64,000 nt of DNA from Candidatus Bipolaricaulota bacterium (GTDB lineage: Bacteria; Bipolaricaulota; Bipolaricaulia; UBA7950; UBA9294): the NCBI GenBank assembly GCA_018817505.1, contig JAHITR010000083.1, positions 52 to 64,051 on the forward strand. Reading direction: 5' to 3'. The translations under genes were made by a program, and so were the position numbers. Each line of letters starts with the position of its first letter. Position 1 is the stretch's first letter. Shown here in pieces: positions 3,720 to 64,000 of this stretch. The notes beneath the pieces were generated by a model. That model was not told where the DNA came from. It saw only the letters and a program-made list of their open reading frames with translations, and searched no databases.

Positions 3720-4784
3720 ATGGCGCGATTCTTTCACAAGAGTTCGGAGAAGGCAGGACAGCTGCCCGGTACGCCCGTCTACGTCGGGAGATCCAAGTCT
3801 GAGGCCGTGGCTATCGAGACATACGAGTTCGATGGCGAGGCCTTGGATTGTGCTGAGGCCGTGTCATTGGACGACGTACAAGCTCCGCAGGATTCCGACA
3901 AGACGTTGTGGGTCAACGTCGATGGCGTTCACGACGTCGATCTCGTGCAAGAGATGGGTACCCGTTTTGGATTGCATCCATTGGCCATAGAAGACATCGC
4001 CCACACAGGACAACGGCCGAAAGTAGAGGATTATGGAAGTCATGCGCTTCTCGTACTTCGCATGCTTCGATGGAACGAGTCAGACGACCAGATTGACGAC
4101 GAGCAGGTTAGCCTCGCCATAGGATCTTCGTGGGTCTTGTCGTTTCAGGAGCGCAAAGGCGATGTCTTTGATCCGATTCGTGATCGACTCAAGACGAATC
4201 GAGGACGCATTCGCAAGATGGGCGCAGATTACCTGTTGTATGCACTGGTAGATGCCATTGTCGACCATTACTTCGTGATCCTAGAGACATTGGGAGACCG
4301 GATTGAGGTGCTGGGCGAGCATATGGCAGAGGATCCGAACAAGAAGGACCTGACATCCATTCGCCATCTCAAACGAGAGCTGCTGTTCATGCGAAAGTCG
4401 GTATGGCCACTGCGCGAAGTGCTCAGTTCGTTGCAGCGGGATGGCGCAGTTTCGATTCACGAGGAGACGGCTCCCTATTTTCGCGACGTCTATGATCACA
4501 CCATTCAAATCATCGACACCGTAGAGACGTTCCGCGATATGGTTTCGGGGCTGATGGACCTCTATCTCTCCAGCATCAGCAATCGAATGAACGAAGTCAT
4601 GAAGGTGCTGACGATCATCGCCACCATCTTCATCCCGCTGTCGTTCGTGGCCGGACTCTATGGCATGAATTTTGACTGGATGCCCGAGCTGCACTGGCGT
4701 TACGGGTACTTCTGGGCGCTGGGGCTGATGACGTCGATCGGTGGCGGGATGCTTGTCTATTTCAGACGCCGCCATTGGTTTTAA
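3720..4784 (+). CDS. corA: magnesium/cobalt transporter CorA
   Basis: C-terminal two TM helices with YGMNFD (GMN motif). About 350 aa. Confidence 0.85.
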   Translation: MARFFHKSSEKAGQLPGTPVYVGRSKSEAVAIETYEFDGEALDCAEAVSLDDVQAPQDSDKTLWVNVDGVHDVDLVQEMGTRFGLHPLAIEDIAHTGQRPKVEDYGSHALLVLRMLRWNESDDQIDDEQVSLAIGSSWVLSFQERKGDVFDPIRDRLKTNRGRIRKMGADYLLYALVDAIVDHYFVILETLGDRIEVLGEHMAEDPNKKDLTSIRHLKRELLFMRKSVWPLREVLSSLQRDGAVSIHEETAPYFRDVYDHTIQIIDTVETFRDMVSGLMDLYLSSISNRMNEVMKVLTIIATIFIPLSFVAGLYGMNFDWMPELHWRYGYFWALGLMTSIGGGMLVYFRRRHWF

Positions 4785-57263: not shown

Positions 57264-57443
57264 AAGCCGCTTCTCGTGTTCCGAGAGAGTCGTCCTACGA
57301 TGCGTTCCTCGGCAGACCGGCATTTTAACCCACATTCACATGGCTTCTGTGGTAACGTCTGTCACATCCGAGCCCGACGCTCGTTCACTCGAAGCCCTTC
57401 CCATGCCCTACGCTGTCCAGCCGAATCAGGAGATCATGGAAGC

Positions 57444-59048
57444 ATGAATCGAGGAACAGGTCACACACACTCAGGGGCGCATCACTCGTTGGCGCGTTGT
57501 GGCGCGATCGCTGGTCTGTCCCTGAGTGTGCTTGTCCTTCTGACTGGCTGCATCTTCGCTCCCAACCTCCCGCCCACGGCTCGAATCCTGGCCGATGTGC
57601 TAGAGGGTCAGCCTCCGCTCACCGTTCAATTCGATGGCACCCAATCAACAGATGAGGACGGCATTGTCAGTAGCTATCAGTGGTCATTCGGCGAAGGCTT
57701 GCCCTCGCAAGCAATGCGCCCAAAACACGTCTACATGTTGCCCGGCGAATATACGGTCATGCTGACTGTGACCGACCACGACGGAGCTTCGAATTCCGCG
57801 GCCATCACAGTGAAGGTTATCGCGCCCAATTCGGCGCCAGTCGCCGTCTTCTCCTACACACCCACAGCTGTTCTCCCCCAAGAAACCGTCCAATTTGACG
57901 CTTCTGAATCTCTCGATGGAGACGGATGGATCACCACGTATCAATGGGAGTTTGGGGATGGCGCCGTAGCAGAAGGCCAGTCAGTGGATCATCCATACGC
58001 CACTCCTGGAAGCTACACCGTGGTTCTCCGTGTGGTCGATGACGATGGCGCTATCGGCACGCGGCAATCGGAGATTCTTGTCATTGATACCAACCAAGCG
58101 CCCCAGCCTCGGATTGAAGTGTCCTCCAAGGCCCTGGATCCCGGCGATTCCCTTCTCTGTAGTGCGAATGGATCATTCGATCCTGACGGCGAGATCGTGT
58201 CCTACGAGTGGGATTTTGGCGACGGAACGCGCACGCAAGGAACTCCAGCCAGCCATACTTACGCGGCAGAGGGCACCTATCGAGTGACGCTGACAGCGAC
58301 GGATGATCTGGGAGCCAAGCAAAGCGCAGTGCAAACCATCTCTGTGGGCACCCCAACTGCACCGCCTATTCCCGACCCCGATCCTTCGGATTCCATTTTG
58401 TGCAAGTACACATGGAACTACGGAGGGACACGATCTCTCTCGCTTTCGATCCCGCAAAGTCTTGCTGACTACTACCGGGGTCTGTCACGCGACGTATGGA
58501 GTGAGGACGGCTATTCACGATTCGTCCTTGACCCCAAAGATGATGCGCTCATGATCCAGCTTCGCGATGCCCTGCTCCTCAACAACAGCTATCAAGCCAC
58601 CATCGAGAACGCACTTGCGTTTGTCCAAAAAGCCGTTTCCTACCAACTTGACCCCGCAGGGTTTGAATACCCTCGCTATCCAGTAGAGACCCTCATTGAC
58701 CGCGTGGGCGACTGCGAAGACTCCGCAATTCTCTACGCCAGTATCGTCCGGACGTTTGGCTATAGCGCTGGCGCATTGCTGGTATCTGTAGACACAGATG
58801 GCGATCAAGTGATGGATCATATCGTCGTGTTCGTTCGTGTCGCCGATTGCTTCATCGAAGCGCACCCCGATCGCAGCTTGTGGACGATCTCGGGAAAGAC
58901 GTATGCATTCGCCGAGACAGCCATTTCCGGTGGATACTTGGCTTTGGGCATCGATCCGTGGGGGATTGAGCAGGAGGATATTCACGATATCTGGGATGTC
59001 GGGGGATCCACACACGCGCTCAACGCAACAAGGCTCATCGCACCCTAG
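57444..59048 (+). CDS. lipoprotein with three PKD repeats and C-terminal transglutaminase-like (Cys-His-Asp) domain
   Basis: Lipobox LLTGC. Three repeats of ~85 aa with PLTVQFDGTQSTDEDG.../ETVQFDASESLDGDG.../CSANGSFDPDGE... C-terminal GDCEDSAILYAS...DHIVVFV resembles a transglutaminase/papain-like core. AGGAGA SD. Confidence 0.55.
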   Translation: MNRGTGHTHSGAHHSLARCGAIAGLSLSVLVLLTGCIFAPNLPPTARILADVLEGQPPLTVQFDGTQSTDEDGIVSSYQWSFGEGLPSQAMRPKHVYMLPGEYTVMLTVTDHDGASNSAAITVKVIAPNSAPVAVFSYTPTAVLPQETVQFDASESLDGDGWITTYQWEFGDGAVAEGQSVDHPYATPGSYTVVLRVVDDDGAIGTRQSEILVIDTNQAPQPRIEVSSKALDPGDSLLCSANGSFDPDGEIVSYEWDFGDGTRTQGTPASHTYAAEGTYRVTLTATDDLGAKQSAVQTISVGTPTAPPIPDPDPSDSILCKYTWNYGGTRSLSLSIPQSLADYYRGLSRDVWSEDGYSRFVLDPKDDALMIQLRDALLLNNSYQATIENALAFVQKAVSYQLDPAGFEYPRYPVETLIDRVGDCEDSAILYASIVRTFGYSAGALLVSVDTDGDQVMDHIVVFVRVADCFIEAHPDRSLWTISGKTYAFAETAISGGYLALGIDPWGIEQEDIHDIWDVGGSTHALNATRLIAP

Positions 59049-59215: not shown

Positions 59216-60220
59216 TTGATTCAGTATGTCGTCAAGCGGATTCTCGCAGTCATTCCCGTATTCATCGCTGTTGCCTTCATCTCGTTTAGCCTGGTGTCCC
59301 TATACCCAGGAGACTATTTTACGATCGCAAAGATGGGGGCCGCGCTCGCAGGGCAGGATCCCCAGGCCGTTCATACGGCGCTTCGAATTCAAGCGGGCAT
59401 TGACAAACCGTTTATTGTGCAGTTTTGGATCTGGCTTGTCGGCGTTGTCACCAAGGGAGATTTCGGCGCCTCCTTCTCAGGGGCATCGGTCACCCGGCTG
59501 TTGTTCTCACCGCAATCGGGGCTGCAATGGACACTGGTCATCACTGGCGGTAGCATGCTCCTCGCATGGGCGTTTGGAATTCCGCTGGGCATCCTTTGCG
59601 CTGTGCAACACAAGAAGTGGTCGGACATCGCCATTTCAGCCGTTGCGTACTTGGGAATTTCGATTCCTGCATTCACCATGGCTCACCTGTTCTTTTGGAT
59701 CATGTACAAATTCATCAATCCGCTGATCATCTCCGGTGGCGTATGGGGATTGGTTCACTACGATCTCGTCAACGCGCCGATGTCGCTGACGAAATTCCTC
59801 AGCTATATTTACCATCTCATGCCTGCCTTCATCATTGTCGGTGCGCCGATGTTCGCGACCGTCGTGCGTCACATGAAGGTGAACATGATGGATGCCTTGC
59901 CCAAGCAGTACCTTGAGACAGCACGAGCCAAAGGAGTTTCCGAAATTCGCGTGGTCGTGAAACATGCTGCACGCAATGCGCTCAATCCGCTGATCAGCAT
60001 CGCCGGTATCATGCTGCCCACCCTGATCACGGGATCGATCCTCTGCGCCAGGATCCTCGGGCTTCCCTCATTTGGCATGGTTTTCATCAACGGCATCGCC
60101 CGCCAAGATCAGCACTTGCTCACGGCCGCACTTCTTTTCTATTCCAGCCTTCTAATCGTTGGAAATCTCATCGCTGATCTGTTACTGGTCGTGCTGGATC
60201 CGCGCATTCGTTACACCTAG
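59216..60220 (+). CDS. ABC transporter permease, DppB/OppB type (orphan)
   Basis: N-terminal ILAVIPVFIAVAFISF and C-terminal IADLLLVVLDPRIR are typical of DppB. TTG start with AGGTG SD. No partner permease, ATPase or SBP adjacent. Confidence 0.65.
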   Translation: MIQYVVKRILAVIPVFIAVAFISFSLVSLYPGDYFTIAKMGAALAGQDPQAVHTALRIQAGIDKPFIVQFWIWLVGVVTKGDFGASFSGASVTRLLFSPQSGLQWTLVITGGSMLLAWAFGIPLGILCAVQHKKWSDIAISAVAYLGISIPAFTMAHLFFWIMYKFINPLIISGGVWGLVHYDLVNAPMSLTKFLSYIYHLMPAFIIVGAPMFATVVRHMKVNMMDALPKQYLETARAKGVSEIRVVVKHAARNALNPLISIAGIMLPTLITGSILCARILGLPSFGMVFINGIARQDQHLLTAALLFYSSLLIVGNLIADLLLVVLDPRIRYT

Positions 60221-60338
60221 TCGTACCCTCTCCCGAGGAGGATCTCCTGCGCCTTGTCGCCCGATCCATCGTTTTGTACTCCCGTTGTCAGCCTAATCGA
60301 CAATCTGAGATTTCCTAATACCTGTTCACTGGCGTCTA

Positions 60339-60431
60339 GTCAATTGTTTTCTTTATTGACAACGTATTACACGTTCCATATTTCTTGACATAGGTGTGCT
60401 CAATCCATATAAACGGAAGGGTAGAAGGAGG
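60339..60431 (+). promoter_or_regulatory. strong sigma70 promoter TTGACA(60385-60390)-N17-TATAAA(60408-60413) with upstream inverted repeat GTCAAT-N10-ATTGAC and AAGGAGG SD
   Basis: Consensus -35, 17-nt spacer, 5/6 -10, in an AT-rich 216-nt gap. SD at 60425-60431. Confidence 0.6.
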
Positions 60432-60436
60432 CGAAC

Positions 60437-60922
60437 ATGAGTCTGTTTGATCGAACAGCATTCATTGAGAAGGTGCAGACGGCCTTCGCAAATGTCGAGA
60501 AGCTTCTTGGAAGTGGAGACGCTTTCGACTATGAGGAGGTTGCACTGTTCAGCGGAATCGTCAATGGATACGAAGAACACGTGGTTTTTCTCCCATTGAC
60601 ACAATCCTCTGTATCTTATCATTTGCAGCGGACACTGGGAGACACAAAGTCCTGGGCAGATATCAGTTCCCTCCCGCTGTACGGGTTCTATGTGCTGTCC
60701 CCAACGAATTGCATCAATTACCTAAGGATGGACACAGCCTATCTCGTACGCGCCATATCATGGGATCGTGCAGAAGTCGTGAATAGCGAAGGCGAAGTGG
60801 CAAGAATGTTCGCCTCGTGGGCTCGCAGAGGAGAGCCCGCGAAGGCCTACTTCACGTTTAGGGGAAACGCGGAATTCCATTCCGATACATGTTGGACGAC
60901 GACCACAAACCAGGTAGGGTAG
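60437..60922 (+). CDS. hypothetical 161-aa protein (partner of the PIMT-like methyltransferase)
   Basis: Strong promoter and SD. Lower GC than flanks. Stop TAG is 3 nt before the start of the downstream methyltransferase. Asn-Gly site and Thr-rich C-terminus HSDTCWTTTTNQVG. Confidence 0.5.
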   Translation: MSLFDRTAFIEKVQTAFANVEKLLGSGDAFDYEEVALFSGIVNGYEEHVVFLPLTQSSVSYHLQRTLGDTKSWADISSLPLYGFYVLSPTNCINYLRMDTAYLVRAISWDRAEVVNSEGEVARMFASWARRGEPAKAYFTFRGNAEFHSDTCWTTTTNQVG

Positions 60923-60925
60923 GTC

Positions 60926-62125
60926 ATGAGCACCCGAGTGTCCGTTCCAAGTGACTACATAGGTTCGATTACGGCCAATCCTGGATCGCTGCCAGAACCG
61001 ATTCGGAATGCTCTTCTGTCCGTGCGAAGACATCGCTTTCTCGATGGATGGTTTCGCATGGAGTTTGACGAGTCCCAGCCAACTTTTCTTCGCGTCGATT
61101 TCGACAAGGACGCGCCGTCTGCCGAGCAATTGTCGGTCATCTACTCAGATCAACCCCTGGTCACTGCACATGACCGCGTGTTTCCGACAAGCTCCACGTC
61201 CCAACCCTCGCTGGTTGCTGGCATGCTTCAGCATCTTGATGTCGTTCCTGGGATGCGCATTCTCGAGATTGGCACGGGGACAGGATACAACGCGGCGCTG
61301 CTTGCCGAGCTGAGTGGCGGAGCCTCCAACGTATTCACGATCGAGTGCCAACAAGACGTCGCCGACAAGGCCAGAAGATTCCTGATCGAAGAGGGATATG
61401 AGGGCATTCATGTGATTTGCGGCGATGGGTTTCATGGAGTCGCTGAAGGAGCCCCCTATGATCGACTCATCGCTACAGTAGGCTGCTCGGACATTTCTCC
61501 TCACTGGCTGGAGCAGCTGAAACCTGATGGCATCATGCTCATCCCTCTGACCCACGGGTTCTCAGATCCCCTCACTCAACTTGTCCAGGACCCGCACGAT
61601 CCAACCTGCGCTGTCGGGACCATCGTGGATCGATCCGCGTTCATGAAGATCCGCGGTGTTCTTGAATGGGGGAACCCTTGGAGCACGTTTATCGTTCACG
61701 GATTGCCCTCTGAGCCTGAGTGGTGTCGTCCACTTCCCGAGTCCTTGAGCGTACCTGACTCAGCCCATCATCCAATCTCCGCGGGCAATCACTGGAGCTT
61801 CCATTTCTTCCTGGCTCTTTGTTCACGGGAATTGTGGTACGACAACAGGGGATATGGCCTTGCAGATCCTGGAAGCAACAGTGTTGTGATGATGACGGCC
61901 AGGGGTATTGAGGCGTTCTCTGCGACCGGGGATGTCAACACCTGTGCGCATCTCTACAGTCGACTTCTGTCGATTCATCGAAAATGGGTCGATCTTGGAT
62001 ACCCCGCTCCCGCCGACTACTCGTTGCGGTTGTCACCCAAGGATCGGTTCGATTCCCTCACGGATCTCACGAGAGAATGGGTGATCGAACGACCACGATT
62101 CCTGGAGAGAATTGGCTTGGCGTGA
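60926..62125 (+). CDS. protein-L-isoaspartate O-methyltransferase (PIMT)-like SAM methyltransferase with ~190-aa C-terminal extension
   Basis: PIMT pre-I region VRRHRF. Motif I ILEIGTGTGYNAALLAEL, motif II VICGDG, motif III YDRLIATVG. Length 399 aa, versus about 210 for canonical Pcm. Confidence 0.65.
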   Translation: MSTRVSVPSDYIGSITANPGSLPEPIRNALLSVRRHRFLDGWFRMEFDESQPTFLRVDFDKDAPSAEQLSVIYSDQPLVTAHDRVFPTSSTSQPSLVAGMLQHLDVVPGMRILEIGTGTGYNAALLAELSGGASNVFTIECQQDVADKARRFLIEEGYEGIHVICGDGFHGVAEGAPYDRLIATVGCSDISPHWLEQLKPDGIMLIPLTHGFSDPLTQLVQDPHDPTCAVGTIVDRSAFMKIRGVLEWGNPWSTFIVHGLPSEPEWCRPLPESLSVPDSAHHPISAGNHWSFHFFLALCSRELWYDNRGYGLADPGSNSVVMMTARGIEAFSATGDVNTCAHLYSRLLSIHRKWVDLGYPAPADYSLRLSPKDRFDSLTDLTREWVIERPRFLERIGLA

Positions 62126-62229
62126 GCGTTCCATTTCAAGGGCGCTTAACGAACTCACCTCTATCAAGGACGAGGAATGGGCGACAAGCAACGCTGGGGC
62201 GGACGCCAGGCCGACGCGCACAGCACATT

Positions 62230-63057
62230 TCACCGCATGGGATCGACATGCTTTCGCCACAGATCGAGGGTGTAGTAGAACGGATCAACAACCTCCAAAT
62301 CGTAATCCCTGAAGAACCCATTGACATTCTTCACATCCCGAACGAGTAGATCGAAAGCATCATCGTTGTACCGAGGGTCGACGGATTGAGGAAAGTCAAT
62401 GATGACGATGTGATCATCGACGTAGAGCATGTTGTAGGCAGAAAGATCGGCGTGAACGCGATGCTGAGCTAGGAACAACTCAACGTTCCGGAGAATCTGC
62501 TGGTAGATCGTGGTTACTTCTCCCGCGTCCAGCGTGACATTCACCAGGACAGGCGCAGGAGCCCGCTCGTCCCCGAAATACTGCATAAGGATCACCGGCC
62601 CTTGGCGCTCAATGGGCTCAGGGACATCGGCGTGCGCTTGGTACAGCAGGGTCATCGTTCGCATTTCGTGGGCGATCCACGCACTGAACTTGTGTACCCG
62701 ACCGCGCGCCGTCTTCTTGCCAAGCGCACGCAATGTCCGGGCGTCGGGGCGCGCTCCCCGCTCACGCCCCTGTTGATAGACAGCATCGTTCTTGAAGCTG
62801 CGTCGCTCGACGGGGCGATAGATTTTTGCGGCAATCAACTCGCCGCCCAAGGATTCGTGCGCACGGCAGCAGTAAACAACTGCCTCTTTCCCCGATTTGA
62901 TGGGGCGTATGACCTCGGCGATCAGCCTGTCTTCGATCAAGGGCTCCAGATGTGCGAGCAACACCTCTTCGACAGTCTTTTCGTCCTCTTCAATAGAACG
63001 CACGCCTCGAAGCTTCTCCTCCTCAGGATCAATGTCATCGAGGCGCTGATTCCTCAT
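62230..63057 (-). CDS. RIO-type atypical serine protein kinase
   Basis: ATP-binding KSGKEAVVY and catalytic VHADLSAYNML match RIO1/RIO2 motifs. ATG overlaps the upstream gene's TGA (ATGA). Confidence 0.6.
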   Translation of the reverse strand: MRNQRLDDIDPEEEKLRGVRSIEEDEKTVEEVLLAHLEPLIEDRLIAEVIRPIKSGKEAVVYCCRAHESLGGELIAAKIYRPVERRSFKNDAVYQQGRERGARPDARTLRALGKKTARGRVHKFSAWIAHEMRTMTLLYQAHADVPEPIERQGPVILMQYFGDERAPAPVLVNVTLDAGEVTTIYQQILRNVELFLAQHRVHADLSAYNMLYVDDHIVIIDFPQSVDPRYNDDAFDLLVRDVKNVNGFFRDYDLEVVDPFYYTLDLWRKHVDPMR

Positions 63058-64000
63058 GAGGCAGGGGTCTCCGAAAGGACCGCGTGTACTCCCTTCAGCC
63101 AATCGATGATCTGGATCTGCTGAGGACATGCTCGCTCGCATTGGCCGCAGGCCACGCACTGGTCGGCACGGCTTTCCGGCTTCATGAACTGGTTATAGGA
63201 GCGCTTGGCGCCATCCTCATCTTCGTACATCTTGAATTGGTTGTAGATTCTGAAGATGTTGGGAATCGCCACGCCGCTTGGGCAAGGCATGCAATATTTG
63301 CAGTCCGTGCAGGGAATGGGAGACAAAGATCTGTAGGCCTCGCTGACGCGGTCGACCAAATCCAATTCAGCAGCTGAAAGTGTTCCCACGCCCGACTTCA
63401 TGGCGCTGCGAAGATTCTCCTCCACATGCAGCATCTCCGTCATGCCCGACAACAGCAGCGACACTTCGGGTTGATTCCACACCCATTGCAGCGCCCAATC
63501 GGCTTGCGTTCGTCGCGTGGGCGAATCGGCCCATAAATCGGCGACAGCCTCAGGAGCGGGACGTGTCAGCGAGCCGCCGCGCAAAGGCTCCATCACGACA
63601 ACGGCCATTCCTTTGGCGGCCGCATAGCGCAGTCCTTCACGCCCAGCTTGGAAATCCGTGTCCATAAAGTTGTACATGATCTGACAGAACGTCCAATCAT
63701 GTGCATCAACAATCGACTTAAACATCGGCAACTCGTCATGGAAGGAAAAGCCGAGGTATCGAATCTTGCCGCTGGCGATGGCCTTCTTCGACCACTCAAT
63801 GACACCGAGATCTCTCAGATTCGGCCAATAGGTCTTGTTCAGAGCGTGCAGCAGATAAAAGTCGATGTGATCCGTCTGTAGGTTGGCCAGCTGGATATCC
63901 AAATGCTTGTCGAAATCGGCCTCCTCTTTGATCAGCCATGACGGCATCTTGGTGGCCAATTTCACCTTCTCGCGATAACCATCTTGAAGGCACCGGCCAA
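63054..64000 (-). CDS. aldo/keto reductase fused to C-terminal 2x[4Fe-4S] ferredoxin domain (5' end outside the window)
   Basis: AKR-fold motifs (IDFYLLH, MEPLRGG) and C-terminal CxxCxxCxxxCP ferredoxin motifs (CTDCKYCMPCP, CVACGQCERACP). The ORF runs to the window edge. Confidence 0.6.
   Translation of the reverse strand, partial: GRCLQDGYREKVKLATKMPSWLIKEEADFDKHLDIQLANLQTDHIDFYLLHALNKTYWPNLRDLGVIEWSKKAIASGKIRYLGFSFHDELPMFKSIVDAHDWTFCQIMYNFMDTDFQAGREGLRYAAAKGMAVVVMEPLRGGSLTRPAPEAVADLWADSPTRRTQADWALQWVWNQPEVSLLLSGMTEMLHVEENLRSAMKSGVGTLSAAELDLVDRVSEAYRSLSPIPCTDCKYCMPCPSGVAIPNIFRIYNQFKMYEDEDGAKRSYNQFMKPESRADQCVACGQCERACPQQIQIIDWLKGVHAVLSETPAS

Follow-up and report, generated by a model that had tools for sequence, protein, structure and literature searches.

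In imiditide and pamtide clusters, a PIMT homologue and its substrate gene make up the whole cluster (PMC13001092, PMC10787088). The WXXXGXP motif is typical of RiPP-associated PIMT homologues (PMC13001092; bioRxiv 10.1101/2023.04.07.536058); together with the C-terminal domain it mediates substrate recognition in these enzymes (PMC13001092). In the PAMT clade the substrate gene typically adjoins the enzyme gene, and ∼70% of the 9,408 surveyed PAMTs have no assigned substrate (PMC10787088). The original prediction for the locus described here overlooked these two-gene clusters and took its parallels from lanthipeptide, lasso and ATP-grasp systems.

The locus belongs to a Candidatus Bipolaricaulota bacterium and lies in a 64,000-nt stretch of contig JAHITR010000083.1 (‘the window’; all features below that have a strand are on the forward one). 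As predicted, an ORF of 161 aa, gene A (60437..60922, ATG start), is followed after 3 nt by an ORF of 399 aa, gene M (60926..62125). A and M are a conserved two-gene operon of Bipolaricaulota, with one sigma70-type promoter and a Shine-Dalgarno sequence before A. The intergenic region upstream of A (60221..60436, 216 nt) is indeed AT-rich: its GC of 0.463 is in the lowest 1% of 216-nt windows (the mean of the stretch is 0.552). No plausible short Gly/Pro/Asp-rich precursor ORF was found in it. Read directly from the letters, the promoter consists of a −35 element TTGACA (60385..60390) and, after a spacer of 17 nt, a −10 element TATAAA (60408..60413), matching 11 of 12 consensus positions; the automatic promoter scan missed TATAAA, since it accepts only T as the sixth base of the second hexamer. 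The Shine-Dalgarno sequence AAGGAGG (60425..60431) is located 5 nt before the ATG of A, where it had been claimed. Across five related loci TTGACAT, the −10 ATATA and AAGGAGG are invariant while the flanking bases vary. The upstream inverted repeat of the original prediction is weak in the window (a perfect 8-nt pair 66 nt apart and a 13-nt pair at 77%), but relatives show a clearer one, ACGTAT-N4-ATACGT, just 5′ of the −35 element. An in-frame stop at 60422–60424 excludes an N-terminal extension or signal peptide of the window's A.

M belongs to the SAM-dependent carboxyl O-methyltransferases; it is cytoplasmic and has the two-domain build of the PAMT / T. maritima PIMT type. All four PIMT motifs attributed to it (RHRF, ILEIGTGTGY, ICGDG and YDRLI) were found; ILEIGTGTGY (aa 112–121, 61259..61288) is the SAM-binding motif, and its residues E114 and G116 are invariant among 59 family members. 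The Pfam model PF01135 (PCMT) matches residues 71–220 with 117.7 bits against a cut-off of 20.3, and the PIMT fold with a Gly-rich SAM-binding motif places M in the PIMT/PCMT superfamily. The C-terminal ∼190 aa, thought at first to be uncharacterised, are a known PAMT / T. maritima-type domain which is also present in relatives that lack A. By predicted structure elements this domain covers about aa 260–399 (61703..62122), and the elements of residues 266–356 follow the order described for PAMT C-terminal domains (PMC10787088). It includes a WXXXGXP motif, W354-V-D-L-G-Y-P360 (61985..62005; like the SAM-binding motif, read from the sequence), with W354 invariant in 59 relatives and G358 substituted in a few. 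The element order, this motif and the 301 residues that align to the two-domain structure 1DL5 assign M to the PAMT clade. M has no signal peptide.

M differs from the single-domain Pcm of ∼210 aa in its length of 399 aa and its C-terminal domain, and it scores below the housekeeping Pcm equivalog cut-offs of TIGR00080 (98.9 vs 159 bits), NF001453 (121 vs 188 bits) and NF010549 (119.9 vs 282 bits). The comparison of RiPP-system models with Pcm models that had been proposed as a check gave a divided answer. M is nearer the former, with 175.1 bits for TIGR04188 and 161.2 bits for TIGR04364 as against 99–121 bits, but these scores are below the curated cut-offs of 380 and 320, and the matches (profile positions 9–240 of 363 and 27–182 of 394, respectively) are confined to the N-terminal half of M. 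A PADLOC search with M returned only a generic PCMT-domain match (mad2). We saw no surE, the typical cluster partner of housekeeping pcm, beside M, its neighbours being the permease gene, A, RIO1 and an aldo-keto reductase gene. There was no second PCMT match within the 64-kb window, in a scan whose pattern (GYN) is blind to canonical Pcm.

The claim that A belongs to no recognisable family stands: Pfam and NCBIfam searches produced no match even at E ≤ 1, and a PADLOC search produced nothing. The family is rare, with 29 representatives among 1.84 billion proteins. The predicted structure of A is confident and globular (pLDDT 91, pTM 0.88), showing a compact and well-folded domain in which many polar residues are invariant, and a comparison with solved folds gave no match. 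A has no CxxC motif. A Sec-type, cleavable-looking signal peptide is present in 47 of 72 A clusters, in some of them with a lipobox, and is absent from the window's copy.

The invariant residues of A are D31, N43, H148 and N158-Q159. In the alignment of 112 unique sequences the most conserved Asp, D31 (D31-Y32 codons, 60527..60532), is kept in 111; in the predicted model H20-23 and E36-42 flank the ordered loop that holds it. N43 (N43-G44 codons, 60563..60568) is likewise kept in 111 and is followed by G in 98, D in 9 and R in 2 sequences. The original prediction had pointed to IVNGYEE as an isoAsp hotspot; the motif is there, but its Asn-Gly is modelled as a two-residue turn joining strands 36–42 and 45–54, a family-wide hairpin turn. 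D150, the second proposed site close to the C-terminus, shows no conservation. Distant homologues of A exist without adjacent M, one of them on a phage contig, and they conserve D31, N43, H148 and N158-Q159 just as well, as they do D28 and the Asn-Gly turn. No conserved Asp is therefore specific to the enzyme-linked sequences, and no modification site in A can be singled out. A PHROGs search with the phage-borne homologue found nothing, nor did a scan of viral contigs with the Bipolaricaulota A alignment. Three long multi-stretch matches to the A profile (P0205, P0207 and P0208) are repeat proteins and were discarded as spurious.

The survey of relatives bore out the expected synteny. In all 36 informative A-ascertained metagenome loci M lies immediately downstream of A on the same strand (4 further loci are uninformative because they break off no more than about 110 nt from A), and A is directly upstream in 10 of 13 distinct M-ascertained loci; with both ascertainments pooled, A adjoins 34 of 37 non-redundant M genes. 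A is kept directly 5′ of M in relatives down to ∼41% M identity. The gene 5′ of A changes between loci (permease, GH31, acetyltransferase, ADI or an IstB-like gene), and so does the context 3′ of M (RIO1, DUF885 or AP endonuclease), while the A–M junction stays constant. The stop-to-start gap of 2–13 nt in annotated loci implies that A and M are translationally coupled. In second-tier full-length relatives of M (from Actinomycetes, Dehalococcoidia, Chloroflexota and one cyanobacterium) the upstream genes include neither A nor a common partner.

The near-constant adjacency suggests, short of proof, that M chemically modifies A. The reading that we prefer, tentatively and with somewhat less than even confidence, treats A as a protein-sized client of M, in analogy to imiditide and pamtide systems. 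A of this subfamily was never seen without M, a pattern expected of a partner depending on M. M would recognise A via its C-terminal domain and methylate A either on a single Asp side chain or on an isoAsp arising at the Asn43-Gly44 hairpin turn; the methyl ester could then collapse to a succinimide (aspartimide), which may persist or open to isoAsp/Asp. Most lineages have an A with a Sec signal; there, modification would occur in the cytoplasm and be followed by export, as with bufferin precursors. For bufferins, cytoplasmic modification of Sec-signal precursors encoded just 5′ of their enzyme is established (PMC12452194). In the window's lineage A may have lost its signal peptide, and would be modified and stay cytoplasmic.

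Several observations weigh against A as a client, besides the lack of a modification site that stands out and the restriction of the linkage to one phylum. The proven PAMT substrates are 30–75 aa peptides, cyclic peptides or Zn ribbons, whereas A is a folded domain of 160 aa; the closest solved relative of M is described as a PIMT, an isoAsp repair enzyme; and M persists without adjacent A in three lineages with its constraint unrelaxed. With still less assurance we regard it as possible that in A a PAMT-type enzyme has its first client of protein size, mostly Sec-exported: a novel-fold domain turned site-specifically to aspartimide/isoAsp by M in the cytoplasm before export.

The strongest alternative, which we judge only somewhat less probable than the client reading, is that A and M share an operon without any enzyme–substrate tie: M would be a housekeeping long PIMT, and a cassette of promoter and A gene would have been inserted 5′ of it ancestrally, the adjacency persisting because M is now transcribed from A's promoter. 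The linkage evidence comes from one phylum, and so shared descent and dependence on a single promoter could keep the genes adjacent without interaction. The composition of the locus agrees with such an insertion. The AT shift is limited to A and the intergenic region: of the two genes said to have lower GC, A does (0.508, in the 5% tail; 0.486 in its 5′ half) and M does not (0.554, the median of 1200-nt windows). The order of permease, RIO1 and aldo-keto reductase genes around M is kept even where A is missing. Given its genomic GC and conserved synteny, M is a core gene and not a horizontally acquired islet; horizontal transfer of M was rejected on these grounds, and for M the proposal of a two-gene module gained by horizontal transfer does not hold.

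The same alternative gains from the three independent lineages (L010, L012 and L016) that keep M without adjacent A. Searches with tblastn for remnants of A in these three and in L020 and L029 gave nothing better than E 0.05. M has survived the three losses with no sign of relaxed constraint: at 84 conserved columns the A-less M proteins have 5, 6 and 9 mismatches, compared with a mean of 3.9 ± 2.5 and a maximum of 11 for A-linked M. (An apparent short PIMT in Acetothermia JdFR-48, L029, proved to be a frameshifted long form.) The methyltransferase is accordingly not dedicated solely to its partner, contrary to what had been proposed. In addition, distant A homologues stand alone, the invariant residues of A are independent of the presence of M, and export is predicted for most A proteins, while M lacks a signal peptide. 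In E. coli, pcm lies in one operon with the lipoprotein gene nlpD, and the two are not known to be enzyme and substrate. What a merely shared operon explains less well is the adjacency itself, found in 36 of 36 informative A-ascertained loci and held down to ∼41% M identity while the genes 5′ of A and 3′ of M were replaced, as well as the tight 2–13 nt spacing and the fact that in M's own clade the neighbouring gene is often the substrate (PMC10787088). The reading of A as a client accommodates the A-less lineages by giving M an additional, A-independent role, because M is retained and constrained where adjacent A is gone; most simply this role would be general isoAsp repair like that of the T. 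maritima enzyme.

It is improbable that A, without being a substrate, partners M as an adaptor, regulator or inhibitor and tunes its activity or specificity toward other proteins. The asymmetric linkage, with M occurring without A but A of this subfamily never without M, would fit such a role, as would translational coupling and the compact, predicted well-folded structure of A with its many invariant polar residues. However, the signal peptides of 47 of 72 A clusters, some with a lipobox, would put A and M in different compartments, and A-like proteins occur without M.

Imiditide precursors are often unannotated 30–75 aa ORFs beside the PIMT homologue (bioRxiv 10.1101/2023.04.07.536058), but we consider a classical imiditide/pamtide cluster, with such a short peptide near M as the substrate and A irrelevant, very improbable: the short ORFs in 60200–60440 and 62110–62240 overlap other genes or lack Gly/Pro/Asp/Lys-rich or CxxCxGxG character, so that none is a plausible precursor, the permease gene and the M ORF of the A-less L012 are only 33 nt apart, and M scores far under the RiPP-system model cut-offs.

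The A–M pair is strictly coupled and phylogenetically deep, and its candidate client is well folded. It would also offer a direct, cloneable test of whether PAMT-type enzymes modify proteins besides peptides; deliberate aspartimide or isoAsp formation in full-size proteins has only scattered known precedents. If A is a client, imiditide chemistry would no longer be confined to short peptides but would reach secreted proteins, as well as a deep-branching uncultured phylum. If the two genes merely share an operon, the result matters less but still counts: M would represent a new long PIMT at family level that is core to Bipolaricaulota, and A would found a new protein family, with no known fold and with secreted, cytoplasmic and phage-borne members.

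Among described systems, imiditides and type I pamtides (NmaA-NmaM, SpaA-SpaM) resemble A–M in having two genes, a C-terminal recognition domain and the WXXXGXP motif; their substrate gene lies beside the enzyme gene, as the candidate substrate gene A lies beside M. The arrangement, with A upstream and a gap of 3 nt, fits their layout. Other RiPP enzymes are absent in both cases (PMC13001092, PMC10787088): as the original prediction stated, there are no lanthipeptide, lasso or ATP-grasp genes nearby (among Pfam-assigned genes at 55–64 kb), and the related loci L001–L011 likewise have no ATP-grasp ligase or lanthipeptide synthetase gene. Imiditide precursors are linear, about 30–75 aa, Gly/Pro/Asp/Lys-rich and mostly from Actinomycetota. 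A, in contrast, is a folded domain of 161–210 aa with ordinary composition and usually a Sec signal peptide, from Bipolaricaulota, and M, unlike imiditide enzymes, acts as a core gene. The window's A, 161 aa and predicted globular, has neither the type I pamtide composition nor two CxxCxGxG motifs. In cysimiditides / type II pamtides the substrate of the PAMT is a folded hairpin whose centre holds the target Asp, and the invariant Asn-Gly of A is predicted to lie at the tip of a hairpin; unlike cysimiditide precursors, A has no CxxCxGxG zinc-ribbon, its hairpin residue is Asn rather than Asp, and it is about three times larger.

The best PDB sequence match of M is Thermotoga maritima PIMT (PDB 1DL5; E 5.7e-28, 27% identity), a PAMT-clade member with W-x-x-x-G (PMC13001092). 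M exceeds it by 80 residues, with an extra beta-hairpin (41–58) and three extra C-terminal strands, and the literature considered mentions no coupled upstream partner of the T. maritima enzyme. The proposed PAMT substrate in FHA-VWA clusters is, as in the reading of A as a client, a neighbouring protein and not a short peptide (PMC10787088). That proposal targets a disordered N-terminal region, long and Pro/Gly-rich, in a ten-gene cluster, whereas A is compact and globular and belongs to a two-gene unit. The enzymes of bufferins (MNIO with a DUF2063 partner) and their Cys oxidation are unrelated to M, and the likeness is one of logic only: the precursor gene is directly 5′ of that of a cytoplasmic modifying enzyme, a Sec signal peptide replaces the leader, and some of the precursors are protein-sized (PMC12452194).

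The gene pair occupies window positions 60437-60922 (gene A, encoding a protein of 161 aa) and 60926-62125 (gene M, encoding a PIMT homologue of 399 aa and starting 3 nt past the A stop), with coordinates and lengths as originally described. The 216-nt spacer 5′ of A has a GC content of 0.463, compared with 0.552 for the whole window, which places it in the lowest 1% of same-size windows. It contains a −35 element TTGACA (60385-60390), a −10 element TATAAA (60408-60413) 17 nt further on and a Shine-Dalgarno sequence AAGGAGG (60425-60431). The promoter is absent from the consensus-scan list because that scan accepts only −10 hexamers ending in T. When the window is aligned with four related loci, TTGACAT, the −10 ATATA and AAGGAGG are invariant while the surrounding bases vary, and on this invariance we regard the promoter as genuine. 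A longer A is excluded by an in-frame stop at 60422. Both genes had been described as lower in GC than their surroundings; this holds for the spacer and for A (0.508; 0.486 in its 5′ half) but not for M (0.554, the window median). In three relatives (L001 ∼4452-4467, L093 and L094) a palindrome, ACGTAT-N4-ATACGT, stands immediately next to the conserved −35 element. Its counterpart in the window (60363-60384) is degenerate; the palindrome may be an operator.

Protein A was said to belong to no recognisable family, and indeed no match was found in Pfam, NCBIfam or PADLOC. A word-indexed search yielded 13 clusters of homologues and a profile search 62, while an HMM search run exhaustively over 1.84 billion representative proteins gave only 29 matches; three of these are repeat proteins and were rejected as spurious. 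Another, P0183 (382 aa), is an apparent A-M fusion whose junction resembles a frameshifted A C-terminus, which makes an artefact of sequencing or assembly more probable than a natural fusion. The AlphaFold2 model of A is confident (pLDDT 91.1, pTM 0.88) and shows an antiparallel sheet preceded by two helices at the N-terminus. Invariant or near-invariant residues among 112 unique sequences include D31-Y32, N43, E47, C92, G143-N144, H148, C152 and N158-Q159, the last pair being separated from the C-terminus by one or two residues in most members and by a short extension in a few. The Asn-Gly proposed as an isoAsp hotspot, N43-G44, is present; however, it forms the two-residue hairpin turn between strands 36-42 and 45-54, and since Asn-Gly is a favoured turn sequence, its position has a structural explanation.

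Forty-seven of the 72 A clusters carry an N-terminal segment of ∼27 residues with a basic start and a hydrophobic core, often with AxA directly before the conserved F-D/N-R, and some distant members have a lipobox; export is therefore predicted for most A proteins. The window's subclade starts with MSLFDR, directly at the mature N-terminus, while in L093 and L094 signal-peptide codons lie between the common ATG/Shine-Dalgarno context and SPLFDR. That context is shared by window 60437, L093 2841 and L094 3001; in the latter two a 27-codon signal peptide comes next, in the window SLFDR comes at once. The signal peptide was cleanly gained or lost inside a clade of 67-68% identical proteins.

M scores 117.7 bits against Pfam PCMT. 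The best NCBIfam models, TIGR04188 (ATP-grasp-system methyltransferase, 175 bits) and TIGR04364 (FxLD-system methyltransferase, 161 bits), do exceed the housekeeping Pcm models (99-121 bits), as a RiPP-type assignment would have it, but M falls below the curated cut-off on every one of them and the two leading matches are restricted to its N-terminal half. Of the solved structures, the T. maritima PIMT (1DL5, 317 aa) is the closest in sequence. The C-terminal domain, described as uncharacterised, proved to be of a known kind. It contains a WXXXGXP motif (W354-VDL-G-Y-P360), with W354 invariant in 59 relatives; among RiPP-associated PIMT homologues this motif is linked with recognition of the substrate (PMC13001092; bioRxiv 10.1101/2023.04.07.536058). 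M is therefore a member of the PAMT, or T. maritima-type, clade, outside both curated RiPP subfamilies and outside the housekeeping equivalogs. Residues 92-214 also match the PADLOC model mad2 (mads_2; E 7e-21), most likely reflecting the common PCMT-type methyltransferase domain; no further defence genes were seen near M. Bipolaricaulota also have a second kind of long PIMT homologue, more distant (36-42% identity with M) and occurring without A; it is found at L029 3947-5103 (Candidatus Acetothermia JdFR-48), where it is frameshift-split into ORFs of 257 and 145 aa, and at L020 2769-3980.

The linkage was surveyed both through A and through M. A metagenome scan with the A alignment found 40 loci. 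In 36 of them the next gene downstream, on the same strand, is M; the contigs of the remaining four stop within ∼110 nt of A. In the M-ascertained set (the window plus L001-L017, M profile score >470 bits), A sits directly upstream of M at 10 distinct loci and is missing there at three (L010/L011, L012 and L016), with no A remnant detected by tblastn. The three A-less M genes fall into three different clades of A-linked genes in a neighbour-joining tree, which indicates three independent losses of A. L012 keeps the gene order of the window (permease, M, RIO1, aldo-keto reductase), 33 nt standing at the place of A, and L016 is syntenic with the A-bearing L006. At 84 conserved columns the A-less M proteins have 5, 6 and 9 changes (3.9 ± 2.5, maximum 11, in A-linked proteins), thus no detectable relaxation. 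M is therefore a vertically inherited core gene, and the proposed horizontal acquisition fails for it. The A-M junction stays at 2-13 nt while flanking genes differ between lineages. No A lacking M has come to light in this subfamily, whereas M can dispense with an adjacent A.

Relatives come from MAGs labelled Bipolaricaulota, Bipolaricaulia or Acetothermia, some submissions being labelled Thermotogae/Thermotogota; local synteny is common to all, whatever the label. Protein A itself is 100% identical to a hypothetical protein on a 106-kb contig of a Candidatus Bipolaricaulota MAG. According to a 2026 preprint (bioRxiv 10.64898/2026.08.26.747336), Bipolaricaulota have lost YbeY, the proposed former of the conserved isoAsp in ribosomal protein uS11, and their uS11 is truncated; isoAsp biology is thus unusual in this phylum in a second, apparently unrelated respect.

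Two other genes of the window deserve comment. The RIO1 kinase ORF (62230-63159, − strand) is over-extended at its 5′ end: the 275-aa L001 homologue aligns to 62230-63057, and the true start would then, as in L001, overlap by a few nt the stop of the upstream aldo-keto reductase/4Fe-4S gene, which itself runs off the window end. The product of the ORF at 57276-59048 (590 aa) combines three PKD domains with a weak transglutaminase-like domain at the C-terminus. This ORF is flanked by an ABC exporter gene and by a BPD_transp_1 permease gene that stands alone, with no binding-protein or ATPase partner in adjacent genes.

Distant A-family members are unlinked to M. After the gene for P0192, which has a lipobox, come trpF-like and PfkB genes, with no PCMT within 3 kb. 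A few nt past P0186 and P0188 lie weakly similar small ORFs (L134 724-969 and L135 799-1011; 70-81 aa, ∼30% identity, common R-x-E-W ... G-x-V-x-x-N ... R-G-x-I-T) that may represent a different conserved partner. P0194 (159 aa, without a signal peptide; L136/L137 3001-3480, and L139, IMGVR_UViG_3300017989_000148) is found on ∼52 kb phage contigs with an excisionase-like gene and a terminase large subunit (phrog_675, E 6e-63), and also on two IMG/VR viral contigs. Amid small unknown ORFs, its gene precedes the terminase gene by 1.8 kb, and M is absent there. These M-less homologues retain D31-Y32, N43 (except P0194), E47, H148 and N158-Q159. The invariant residues therefore belong to the fold or function of A itself and cannot be taken to mark an M target site.

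PAMT-clade enzymes methylate one Asp of a usually adjacently encoded substrate, giving a methyl ester, then aspartimide, then isoAsp/Asp, and in imiditides and pamtides the whole cluster is enzyme plus substrate gene (PMC13001092, PMC10787088). The most likely reading, which we hold tentatively, treats A as a protein-sized client of M that would undergo modification in the cytoplasm, before being exported in most lineages; M would also retain a general role. Cytoplasmic modification of Sec-signal precursors encoded directly upstream of the enzyme is established for bufferins (PMC12452194). The main rival, only somewhat less likely, is that A and M are merely operon mates, an A cassette with its promoter having inserted upstream of a housekeeping long PIMT, and adjacency being preserved because M depends on that promoter. 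The restriction of the AT shift to A and spacer, the free-standing A homologues, the different predicted compartments of A and M, and the independence of M from A all agree with such an insertion; against it stands a linkage that has stayed strict across deep divergence and repeated replacement of the flanking genes. That A is a non-substrate partner of M is improbable, being disfavoured by the signal peptides of A, and a hidden short precursor as the substrate of M is very improbable, as no plausible ORF was found.

No description of the A-M pair was found in the searchable literature. In one survey ∼70% of 9,408 PAMTs were left unassigned, and one protein-level target, FHA-domain proteins, was proposed (PMC10787088). 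The enzyme type of M and the logic of adjacency are known already; the partner, A, differs from every known substrate in size, fold and predicted export.
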